The position numbers are program-made. 64,000 bases of DNA from Escherichia coli O127:H6 str. E2348/69 (GTDB taxonomy: Bacteria > Pseudomonadota > Gammaproteobacteria > Enterobacterales > Enterobacteriaceae), in NCBI RefSeq assembly GCF_000026545.1, contig NC_011601.1; one strand, written 5' to 3'. Shown in pieces: positions 3,001 to 6,000 of this stretch; position 1 is the stretch's first letter; each line of letters begins with the position of its first letter.

Positions 3001-6000
3001 CAACATATTAACGGCATAATATTGACTTTTTGAATAACTTTGGGGAAACTTGACACCAATAATGGGCGTTTTTTACATGTCATTGATGAGTCTCAATAAC
3101 CTGCCGCCGAGTAGTTTTTATGCTCTGAATTGTATTTGTGTAGTAAACATGCTGACTGCAATGTAATAGAGTTTTTTTAGCCTGTAACCTCTTGACGGCA
3201 TTGAATTGCTTTTGTTATGAGTTGTAAGCCAATGTTATCATCTTGTATTGGGGTGGTTATGAAGGATGGTGCACTGCTCAGGAGTTCTTCACTTTTTATT
3301 GCCTACATGGGATGCCTTGGATGGGGGAGTGCTTATTTCTATGGATGGGGTACTTCTTTTTACTACGGCTTCCCATGGTGGATTGTAGGTGCAGGTGTTG
3401 ATGATGTTGCCAGAAGTTTATTTTTTGCAGTTATCGTCATTGCTATATTTCTTATCGGTTGGGGTATTGGTGTTGTATTCTTTTTCGCAGTGAAAAGAAA
3501 ACATTCTATGCAAGAGCTAAATGTATTTCGCCTTTATTTTGCTGTGGAATTATTGTTTGTGCCGGCAATTATTGAGTTTTCTATATTGAGACAGAAGATT
3601 CAGGTACCTCTTTTGCTACTGTCAGCAGCGATTGCGCTGGCGGTTACAATTTCGATAAGATCTTATGGGCGATTTTTATCGGTATCATGCTTCTATGATA
3701 AGCCATTTATAAAAAAACATTTTTTTGAGATTGTGATGATTGCTTTTGTGGCATATTTCTGGCTTTTTTCATTTCTGACAGGATATTACAAACCGCAGTT
3801 TAAGAAAGAATATGAAATGATTAATTATAATGATGGTTGGTATTATGTTCTTGCTCGTTATGATAATTGTCTGGTTTTGTCTACTTCTTTCAATGCAGGT
3901 AGTAAAAGGTTTGTCATTTATCAATCAGCACAAGATAAGAATCTTCAGGTTGATATTGTAAGGACCAGAATTTAATTGGCTGCATAAATAATATTTTAAG
4001 TTGCAAGTTGGCTATTCGTAGGAATAGAACCTTAGGCATGCTGAATGCGTTTTCTGAACATTGTTTTATAAACTGTGTCTGCTTGCTGTTGTGATCCTGC
4101 TTTTAGTGATGGTGATGATGGATTTCACCAGCAGGATAATGTTGGTACTGACTGATGGCGCTCTGGTCTGCGGCATTGTGGTATTGCTGTGGCCGATGAT
4201 GAAAAAACAGAATGAATAATCCTTGACTTTTTTGTTTACTGTTTATTAAAAAATCAACCGCATGGTGAATCCTCCTTGGAGGGGCTAAATGATCGAGTTT
4301 TAAGGGCACGTAGCGAGTTCTGTTTGATCATTGCAGAACTTAGCGGGAGGCGCCATGCGTACATCACTAATGTTATTTCCTTCTATCATTTTCCTTGTGA
4401 GTTCTGGCTGCGCATGGCGCGGCCTTTTTTTTATGACCTGCCACTGGCAGATGGTCATCCTGTGATTTGATTCCGGTTCCGGCTTTTTAACTCTGTTCCT
4501 GTACACGGGAGAAATTCTATGTCGATTAATCGTTATGATATTGGTTACAAGAAGTACCACGTATTGTGTTGAGATAGAAAGCATGGTGCCAGAGGTAAAT
4601 GCAGCAGCATAATAAAAAAGAGCCAGCGCAGAAGAGAACGGGTAAAAGAGTCTGCGCTGGCGTGGGGATATTCCCCGTGGAGAAATGATATGTAACACAC
4701 ATCGGGAACCTTTCTATATAAACATTATCATTATTGTCAATCATAACAGTCAGGTATTATGACGTTTATGCATCAGGGCCATCAGGAATTAACTGGTGGC
4801 TTTTTATTGTTGTCAGCTTCCGGATAACGGGAGACGGGGTATGTACCAGATGGAAAAAATAACAACAGGTGTGTCATACACCACGTCAGCGGTGGGGACG
4901 GGATACTGGCTACTGCAGTTGCTGGACAAAGTCTCCCCATCCCAGTGGGTGGCAATAGGCGTATTGGGTAGCCTGGTGTTTGGCTTGCTGACGTATCTGA
5001 CAAACCTTTATTTCAAGATTAAAGAAGATAAGCGTAAGGCTGCGAGAGGTGAATAATGTCGCCATCATTACGCAAGGCTGTTGCTGCTGCTATTGGTGGT
5101 GGGGCTGTTGCCATAGCGTCTGTGCTCATCACTGGTCCGAGTGGTGACGATGGCCAGGAAGGTGTCAGCTACATACCATACGAAGATATCGTTGGCGTAT
5201 GGACTGTATGTCACGGACACACCGGAAAAGACATCATTCCCGGTAAAACGTATACCGAAGCAGAATGCAAAGCCCTCCTGAATAAAGACCTTGCCATGGT
5301 CGCCAGACAAATTAACCCGTACATCAAAGTCGATATACCGGAAACAACGCGCGGCGCTCTTTACTCGTTCGTTTACAACGTGGGCGCTGGTAATTTCAGA
5401 ACATCGACGCTTCTTCGCAAAATAAACCAGGGTGATATCAAAGGCGCATGTGACCAGCTACGTCGCTGGACATACGCTGGCGGTAAGCAATGGAAAGGGC
5501 TGATGACCCGTCGTGATATTGAGCGTGAAGTCTGTTTGTGGGGGCAGCAATGAGCAGGGTAACCGCGATTATCTCCGCTCTGGTTATTTGCATCATCCTC
5601 TGCCTGTCATGGGCTGTTAATCATTACCGTGATAACGCCATCGCCTACAAAGAGCAGCGTGATAAAAAAGTCAGTGAGCTGAAGCAGGCGACCGCCACCA
5701 TTACTGACATGCAGCAACGCCAGCGTGCTGCTGATGTACTCGATGCTAAATACACGAAGGAGTTAGCCAATGCGAAAGCTGAAAATGATGCTCTTCGGCG
5801 TAAGCTTGATAATGGTGGTCGGGTGCTCGTCAAAGGAAAATGCCCTGTGCCAGCCTCAGCCAAAACCTCCAGCTCCTCCGGCATGGGCAATGATGCCACC
5901 GTCGAACTCTCTTCAGTTGCTGGACGAAACGTTCTCGGTATCCGGGACGGAATTATCCGTGACCAAACAGCACTGAGAACGCTTCAGGAGTACATCAGGA

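Follow-up and report, generated by a model that had tools for sequence, protein, structure and literature searches.

A TfpB/STM1630-family membrane protein gene between Q and the lysis cassette of a lambdoid prophage in Escherichia coli O127:H6 str. E2348/69

A stretch of 64,000 nucleotides from Escherichia coli O127:H6 str. E2348/69 (contig NC_011601.1), termed the window here, carries a lambdoid prophage in which the late antiterminator gene Q and the holin gene S are separated by an AT-rich segment. The main open reading frame of this segment (positions 3259–3975, plus strand) encodes a 238 amino acid (aa) membrane protein. What type of protein is this, and what might it do for the phage or for the bacterium that carries it? 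A first reading, made from the sequence only, had recognised no family and had proposed lysogenic conversion, superinfection exclusion or abortive infection. The open reading frame is found to belong to the TfpB/STM1630 family and, with a small DUF3927 gene that follows it, constitutes a two-gene lambdoid moron.

The segment is bounded upstream by Q (positions 2356–2979, plus strand), whose 207 aa product is identical to lambda Q at 203 of 207 positions (98%) and matches phrog_127; the NCBI Prokaryotic Genome Annotation Pipeline (PGAP) names it ‘antitermination protein’. The downstream boundary of the moron is the first gene of the lysis cassette (4841–5056, plus strand), with matches to phrog_9876 and phrog_20, both holin families, and the PGAP name ‘class II holin family protein’. 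The list of open reading frames and PGAP give the Q 3′ end at 2979 and the holin start at 4841, with 1861 bp in between. The guanine-plus-cytosine (GC) content of positions 2980–4840 is 0.33–0.44 vs. about 0.50 on either flank, in agreement with the AT-richness noted in the first reading. Lambda and mEp234 have Q and the late promoter pR′ in common with the window and lack the insert.

The segment thus displays the properties of a lambdoid moron: it is additional DNA between conserved phage genes, it is missing in close relatives, its composition is deviant, and it has a terminator of its own (hairpin at 4406–4432, −15.2 kcal/mol). The placement in the Q-to-S slot had been proposed before and is borne out by the lack of an insert in lambda and mEp234 and by an Enterobacter cloacae Stx prophage in which a homologue is right after stxAB. 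At least 80% of the Q-to-S interval is present in 585 of 5426 complete E. coli genomes, and few cargo genes are more common than this one in the lambdoid prophages of E. coli.

The protein has a counterpart of 100% identity in phage 434, annotated as ‘putative membrane protein’ (CPT_434_68, accession number OL657226.1), where the module is 98% identical in nucleotide (nt) sequence. The Escherichia phage 2B8 protein is 97.9% identical. In both phages the gene occupies the same Q-to-S slot as in the window and is followed by the same DUF3927 gene (‘TciB’ in 434) and the same terminator. Phage 434 differs in that a Q82-type antiterminator gene and an intact terminator precede its module, and in having a SASA/NanS-p-type esterase gene downstream of the module, which is absent in the window. 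The gene, its family, its position and its presence in phage 434 are already on record.

The open reading frame at 3259–3975 and its family

The frame is open from position 3217 and has possible starts at 3217, 3232, 3259 and 3307. The ATG at 3259 aligns with the N-termini of at least 30 homologues and is also the start in the newer PGAP call. Because these two agree, 3259–3975 is the preferred gene model; the longer starts at 3217 and 3232 were discarded, as the family alignment favors 3259.

Three annotation sources place the protein in a family. Residues 31–252 of the long open reading frame match phrog_1521 (E-value = 2.1e-154), a database entry of 100% identity carries the Pfam label PF27470 (‘TfpB’), and PGAP annotates WP_001299184.1, at the matching position of a 100% identical region, as ‘STM1630 family protein’. 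All three labels are of unknown function, and this is also the annotation of each family in the full set of PHROG matches (phrog_1521, phrog_14371, phrog_17164 and phrog_3985). The Pfam-A copy that was searched predates the PF27470 model and gave no significant family, either with the single protein or with all 32 aligned homologues. NCBIfam r20 has no match for the 238 aa protein. The PHROG search shows no match of the main open reading frame to holin, antiholin or spanin families, and PADLOC-DB v2 yields 0 families at E-values up to 1. The PADLOC result is weak evidence because this defence library dates from 2023. The main product is probably not a component of phage lysis, and probably does not belong to any defence system of the 2023 PADLOC library. 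Of the earlier statement that no catalytic or family motif is recognisable, the catalytic part stands, as none was found; the family part does not, in view of phrog_1521, PF27470 and the PGAP name.

Two relatives have names in the literature or in databases. The Salmonella STM1630 cluster has 46% identity over 100% of the query (E-value = 1e-70). The N-terminal sequence encoded by a published primer for the deletion of STM1630 fits the family motif, and the gene is 717 bp long. STM1630 (SL1344_1560) is like the window protein in its family, its length of 238 aa and its nature as an AT-rich single gene; it differs in being chromosomal, outside a prophage late operon, and in having its own mapped promoter. 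The second relative is the Moraxella ‘protein tfpB’, with a family-profile match of 7.9e-61. It has 261 aa and the conserved motifs of the window protein, but differs in its low identity (about 25%–29%) and in its location between type IV pilin genes, where the layout resembles an inversion. Pfam PF27470 is named after this type IV pilin-locus reading frame; the inversion region of the Moraxella pilin genes is a subject of literature from the 1990s.

The window protein shows the architecture of the family: about 235–260 aa, five transmembrane helices, a C-terminal beta domain and a conserved motif. Hydropathy analysis displays four clear hydrophobic segments and a first one that is rich in glycine and aromatic residues. 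The AlphaFold2 model (predicted local distance difference test score, pLDDT, 79; predicted template modelling score, pTM, 0.72) has helices at aa positions 3–36, 47–78, 89–111, 116–136 and 149–181 and five beta strands at positions 187–232. The predicted C-terminal beta domain consists of these five strands, about 50 residues. Hydropathy and model agree with the first description of about five helices and a soluble C-terminal tail. With the AlphaFold2 model as query, Foldseek against the PDB gives a best E-value of 0.88 and shows no solved structural relative, and a PDB profile search with the 238 aa protein gives 0 matches. Structural matches in AFDB50 are with uncharacterised proteins only, with TM-scores to family members of up to 0.88.

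The ratio of non-synonymous to synonymous substitution rates (dN/dS) vs. relatives is 0.05–0.2; therefore this is a real gene under constraint. Between the homologues of S. enterica subsp. arizonae and S. enterica subsp. diarizonae the value is 0.05. Strong purifying selection, including that in the Salmonella subspecies pair, indicates long vertical retention, as judged from these sequence comparisons.

An alignment of 32 homologues, with identities down to 20%, was used to find conserved positions. Residues A25, Y26, W30, W40, A51, G175 and F218 are invariant. Positions of full or near-full conservation hold, with few exceptions, an aromatic residue, glycine or proline, and they form two clusters. 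The first encompasses the end of transmembrane helix 1, the following loop and the start of helix 2 (W22, A25, Y26, Y28, G29, W30, Y36, G37, P39, W40, V43, G46, A51, R52, S53 and L54), and the second runs from the end of helix 5 into the initial strands of the beta domain (G175, P179, Y185, Y195, Y196, L207 and F218). The loop carries an aromatic/glycine motif, AYxYGWG...YYGFPWW.V..G..DDVARSL, whose form in the family is AYxYGWG...YG[FY]PWW...ARSL. No conserved set of His, Asp, Glu, Ser or Cys residues and no conserved intramembrane charge is present in the alignment. Because of this, an enzyme or ion transporter appears unlikely.

Loop 1 is nearly free of Lys and Arg (means over the 32 homologues of 0.06 Lys/Arg and 1.7 Asp/Glu), and loops 2 and 4 are rich in them (2.5–2.7 Lys/Arg). 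By the positive-inside rule, this distribution points to a topology with the N-terminus in and the C-terminus out, which would put both best-conserved parts, the aromatic loop and the beta domain, on the periplasmic side.

Runs of seven A and seven T residues are present within the TfpB-family open reading frame (3711–3726 and about 3760). At least 6 of 94 related prophage contigs show a frameshift in or close to one of these runs or a T-run in the vicinity; a premature stop is present in one of the 94. The frameshifts could represent slippage-prone inactivation or an assembly error.

Distribution of the family and its possible function

The family is small: clustering at 50% identity gives it 56 clusters out of 1.84 billion representatives. 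Its hosts are confined to animal-associated Enterobacteriaceae, Pasteurellaceae, Neisseriaceae and Moraxella. The genomic contexts are almost always accessory DNA and often adjoin virulence genes, as the following examples show.

In prophages of E. coli and Yersinia enterocolitica, homologues are found right after the Q gene. The Enterobacter cloacae prophage mentioned above (CP017475.1; positions 1162–6017 of locus L159) has, in order, an antiterminator gene, an stxA-like gene (RIP), an stxB-like gene (SLT_beta), the TfpB homologue and lysis genes. On plasmids of enterotoxigenic E. coli (ETEC) a homologue is located 870 bp from eltAB in divergent orientation. A homologue flanked by insertion sequences (IS) is present on 106 Shigella plasmid records, including the virulence plasmid pWR100 (pINV). 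In Salmonella, STM1630 is between steB and sseJ. On an E. coli island the homologue adjoins iroB/iroC-like genes and a Bor homologue, and in Citrobacter rodentium it adjoins lpxR. In Pasteurellaceae, Neisseriaceae and Moraxella the homologues are lone genes on the chromosome; Haemophilus ducreyi has its homologue between rpoH and mqo, and Aggregatibacter has two copies. In a Neisseria sp. metagenome-assembled genome (positions 4229–8695 of locus L150) the isc/hsc iron-sulfur cluster operon has an insertion between hscB and hscA that consists of a TfpB homologue and a DUF6973 gene. A homologue on a metagenome-assembled contig, of the length of the Moraxella member, adjoins a capsule locus.

The lpxR gene (lipid A deacylase) is also found just upstream of Q in phage 434 (positions 810–1769 of locus L001). 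The C. rodentium lpxR (positions 2863–3823 of locus L158), immediately beside the TfpB homologue, is split into two open reading frames. The proximity of lpxR to TfpB homologues in 434 and C. rodentium may be a coincidence, or lpxR may be a second shared cargo gene.

Clustering of the flanking open reading frames of 17 chromosomal loci shows no neighbour that is conserved across genera; the gene therefore acts as a single gene. In nearly every host the homologue is more AT-rich than its surroundings. On this comparative evidence the TfpB-family gene appears to be sufficient by itself and to move horizontally, as a single gene, among Gram-negative bacteria that are associated with animals.

A lone gene scattered over variable loci, encoding a polytopic inner-membrane protein without catalytic residues, would also suit an orphan immunity or tolerance function against a toxin that acts on the envelope, such as a pore-forming colicin, a microcin, or an effector of contact-dependent inhibition (CDI) or of a type VI secretion system (T6SS) in the periplasm or inner membrane. 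PHROGs points the same way, as an annotation label only, in describing the adjacent gene (DUF3927) as ‘TciB-like inhibition of cell division or resistance to colicin’. However, a toxin gene or fragment is never a recurrent neighbour in the contexts examined, and the NCBIfam r20, Pfam-A copy and PDB profile searches show no similarity to known immunity families. Colicin immunity proteins have 3–4 transmembrane segments, and the TfpB-family protein is larger and differently built. An immunity function is considered very unlikely.

Published data on Salmonella bear more directly on function. STM1630 is bound by H-NS, has its own mapped promoter, and is expressed in strain 4/74 in medium that induces Salmonella pathogenicity island 2 (SPI-2) and within macrophages (PMC6785131 Text S1). 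It is among the genes co-regulated with SPI-2 (PMC2639726). The −10 box is destroyed, and the promoter thereby inactivated, in all invasive ST313 strains examined, and the gene is missing from S. Typhi; deletion in 4/74 leads to more intramacrophage replication (PMC6785131 Text S1). STM1630 mutants were attenuated in calf and chicken screens according to the citation of Morgan 2004 in PMC6785131. These data point to host-associated expression rather than to phage defence.

The main rival explanation, that of superinfection exclusion or abortive infection, supposes an inner-membrane protein that blocks the entry of incoming phage DNA at the periplasmic face or kills infected cells, which would protect the lysogen. 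The gene is a prophage moron for a membrane protein whose expression in the lysogen is plausible. It is found singly in variable, AT-rich, mobile contexts, as are many defence genes, and a conserved surface that faces the periplasm would suit interference with an injection apparatus. P22 SieA, SieB of lambda and P22, HK97 gp15 and T4 Imm are small inner-membrane exclusion proteins, each acting alone. No sequence or profile similarity between these and the window protein was detected with PHROGs and PADLOC, and the TfpB family, unlike this comparison set, is widespread outside phages. The matched PHROG families carry no exclusion annotation. Vertical retention in the Salmonella subspecies and presence on the 106 Shigella plasmid records are unusual for fast-turnover defence genes, and the Salmonella copy is induced under intracellular, SPI-2 conditions. 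The searches thus gave no positive evidence for the exclusion or abortive infection role put forward in the sequence-only reading, with no PADLOC match and only ‘unknown function’ PHROGs, and this role is rated as unlikely.

The explanation favored here, tentatively and at somewhat less than even confidence, is that of a non-enzymatic inner-membrane protein that acts alone, as a factor of the lysogenic-conversion or host-adaptation type. The TfpB-family protein would bind or modulate a conserved component of the envelope on the outer, periplasmic face of the inner membrane, and the carrier bacterium would gain a conditional benefit in the animal host. Host adaptation or lysogenic conversion is favored because of the vertical retention in Salmonella, the retention on pINV despite heavy IS activity, and the animal-associated hosts. 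The function, once found, would annotate thousands of pathogen genomes and explain the company of toxin and effector genes.

Several points weigh against this explanation. Experimental data within the family are those on Salmonella STM1630 only, and the effects reported for STM1630 are weak and do not all agree. No macrophage phenotype was seen on deletion in D23580 (PMC6785131 Text S1). A role in motility was considered and rejected: an STM1630 mutant was hypermotile in one screen (PMC4219756), and this was not reproduced (PMC4534456). The neighbourhood of toxin and effector genes may merely reflect shared descent from the Q-to-S moron slot, and the confinement to host-associated taxa may be due to the routes by which genes are transferred and not to function.

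Transcription layout of the module

A lambda-type late promoter pR′ with the Q-binding/qut region is present at positions 3022–3066 on the plus strand. It is nearly identical to lambda up to about +10 and aligns with features that are annotated as ‘promoter / lambda Qut-like’ in mEp234 and HK97-like phages. The −35 sequence is TTGACT (3022–3027), the −10 sequence is GAAACT (3045–3050), and these are followed by a −10-like pause element, AATAAT. The transcript is predicted to start near position 3058. The pR′ promoter is constitutive in lambda, and by its sequence it would be expected to be active in the E2348/69 prophage.

The window shares with the lambda leader (pR′, 6S RNA and tR′) a Q that is 98% identical, the −35/−10 arrangement and qut. 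The homology to lambda stops at about +10 of the transcript and homology to phage 434 is found from about position 3095. Alignment to lambda shows that tR′ is absent from the window leader. In phage 434 a terminator is located just before the module, after a Q82-type promoter; it has the sequence CCCGCT-GCCG-AGTGGG-T8 and is intact (−13.3 kcal/mol, z = −3.8). Positions 3101–3119 of the window (plus strand) display a decayed remnant of it. Substitutions and one deletion relative to 434 shrink the stem to 4 bp (CUGC/GUAG, followed by U5; −2.2 kcal/mol, z = 0.41).

A terminator scan calls no intrinsic terminator between positions 3058 and 4406, and thus none within about 200 nt of the start. As the 434-type terminator is decayed, the hairpin at 4406–4432 (plus strand) is the first strong intrinsic terminator downstream of pR′. 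It has an 8-bp stem with 7 G-C pairs, a 3-nt loop and a T8 tail (z = −2.75), and a terminator is annotated at the same position in phage 434. This hairpin is probably the functional equivalent of tR′ in the E2348/69 prophage. The identity of the gene, its family, its architecture, the purifying selection on it, the mosaic boundaries and the terminators form the established part of this account.

The lambda leader terminates at +194, and in Stx phages tR′ is ahead of stx. Foreign genes between Q and the lysis cassette are common to the window and the stx moron of Stx phages. The window differs from lambda and from the Stx phages in that the constitutive leader includes the moron and runs for about 1.35 kb to the first strong terminator. 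The layout, a decayed upstream terminator with cargo inside the late leader, is a modest addition to known facts. The earlier proposal, that the open reading frame lies between the late promoter and its terminator if 4406–4432 is the tR′ equivalent, agrees with the finding of no competent terminator from pR′ to the open reading frame. Expression of the moron in the lysogen without induction is plausible on this layout. Transcripts from pR′ would meet their first competent terminator at 4406–4432, giving a low level of the protein in the lysogen and a strong rise through Q after induction.

The module is found in 109 prophage contigs of IMG/VR, of which about 64 have a lambda-type promoter with a decayed terminator and about 41 an 82-type promoter with an intact terminator. 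Thus about 60% of the sampled contigs are without a working upstream terminator and about 40% have one, which offers a natural test of the expression of leader cargo. The GAAACT variant of the −10 sequence is present in about 60 of the 64 lambda-type contigs that carry the module. The variant may weaken the constitutive promoter, or it may simply go back to a founder effect.

The moron may also have its own promoter. A candidate at 3192–3221 (plus strand) consists of TTGACG, an 18-nt spacer and TG-T-TATGAG. It is part of a block, CTTGAC-N17/18-TTTGTnATG, located about 40–65 nt upstream of the open reading frame. The block is kept at the copies on the ETEC heat-labile toxin (LT) plasmid and adjacent to iro, which have a protein identity of 57%–59% and no Q, and this −35/extended −10-like arrangement is conserved in four divergent contexts. 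The conservation suggests that the block may be the gene's own promoter. Promoter-like sites show no enrichment in the region over shuffled sequences.

The gene is part of the late transcript and directly precedes the holin gene, which raises the further possibility of a function in the late phase of phage growth. Most of the protein would then be produced once Q has antiterminated transcription, and it would adjust the timing of lysis, the integrity of the envelope or the release of periplasmic cargo such as AB5 toxins; homologues right after stxAB in the Stx prophage and near eltAB fit this. However, most family members are found outside phages (in Salmonella, on Shigella pINV, in Pasteurellaceae, Neisseria and Moraxella), phages with the same Q and pR′ (lambda, mEp234 and HK97-type) do without the gene, and the main open reading frame lacks any match to holin, antiholin or spanin families. 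This function appears improbable, to the same degree as toxin immunity.

The leader layout and the envelope role favored above can be put together. The decay of the terminator would then have produced a 1.35-kb constitutive mRNA in place of the 6S-type pR′ leader in the majority class of prophages, and the TfpB family would be an unrecognised envelope factor of mucosal pathogens. This combination seems distinctly unlikely as a whole, a little less so than the immunity and late-phase functions. If it were true, the TfpB-family and DUF3927 membrane proteins would be present in every lysogen and boosted by Q on induction, and the family, repeatedly found near genes for AB5 toxins (stx, elt) and type III secretion system (T3SS) effectors, may aid colonisation or toxin handling.

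On the side of expression, the −10 sequence of pR′ counts against the explanation favored above, being GAAACT vs. TAAATT in lambda and mEp234 and thus weaker. The candidate promoter at 3192–3221 is outside the consensus-scan list (its −10 is without the final T), the scan giving an overlapping site at 3212–3241. Both the 200-nt leader and the AT-rich open reading frame could be subject to silencing by H-NS or Rho. The AT-rich moron DNA would, by analogy with STM1630, be a probable target of H-NS silencing.

Other reading frames and minor observations

The second gene of the module, at 4061–4219 (plus strand), encodes a small membrane protein of 52 aa that matches PF13064 (E-value = 1.5e-14) and phrog_1470 (1.2e-17, ‘TciB-like’ in PHROGs) and is annotated by PGAP as ‘DUF3927 family protein’. 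Its reading frame is intact in most of 92 prophage contigs. A DUF3927 gene was not found beside plasmid or chromosomal TfpB homologues in the contexts examined.

Two further open reading frames of the interval were rejected as genes. The frame at 4355–4465 (plus strand) combines a strong Shine-Dalgarno sequence (GGGAGG) with a signal peptide like that of a lipoprotein (MRTSLMLFPSIIFLVSSGC...) and a lipobox-like VSSGC. Across 91 related prophage contigs this frame is often broken, while the terminator at 4406–4432 that it overlaps is kept. Phage 434 annotates another frame over this region as ‘putative membrane protein’. The second, a 132 aa minus-strand ‘hypothetical protein’ of PGAP (WP_012578864.1, 4300–4698), shows stops or replacement in many related prophages, with 35 variants in 82 contigs, and looks spurious.

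The terminator segment at 4402–4543 has 93% identity with DNA that precedes yjhS/nanS-p in an O55:H7 prophage (JLK-2012). In phage 434 (positions 4404–6254 of locus L001) and in 2B8 the segment runs on into the SASA-family (NanS-p-like) esterase gene. The window has no esterase gene between about 4543, where the homology to 434 ends, and the holin gene. A second terminator-like hairpin is located just upstream of the holin gene at 4775–4812 (plus strand), with an 11-bp stem (−15.8 kcal/mol, z = −4.1) and an annotated terminator at the equivalent place in 434.

Elsewhere in the prophage, RefSeq flags the tail tape measure gene (about 16810–19865, coordinates converted from the record) as a frameshifted pseudogene, and the prophage may be defective. 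Outside the region studied, three tandem naRNA4 elements (CssrE; of the repetitive extragenic palindromic, REP, type) at 39167–39447 on the minus strand score above the Rfam gathering score. A full-length Rfam match to Ysr251 is present at 62613–62806 on the minus strand, with 188.7 bits vs. a gathering score of 100.

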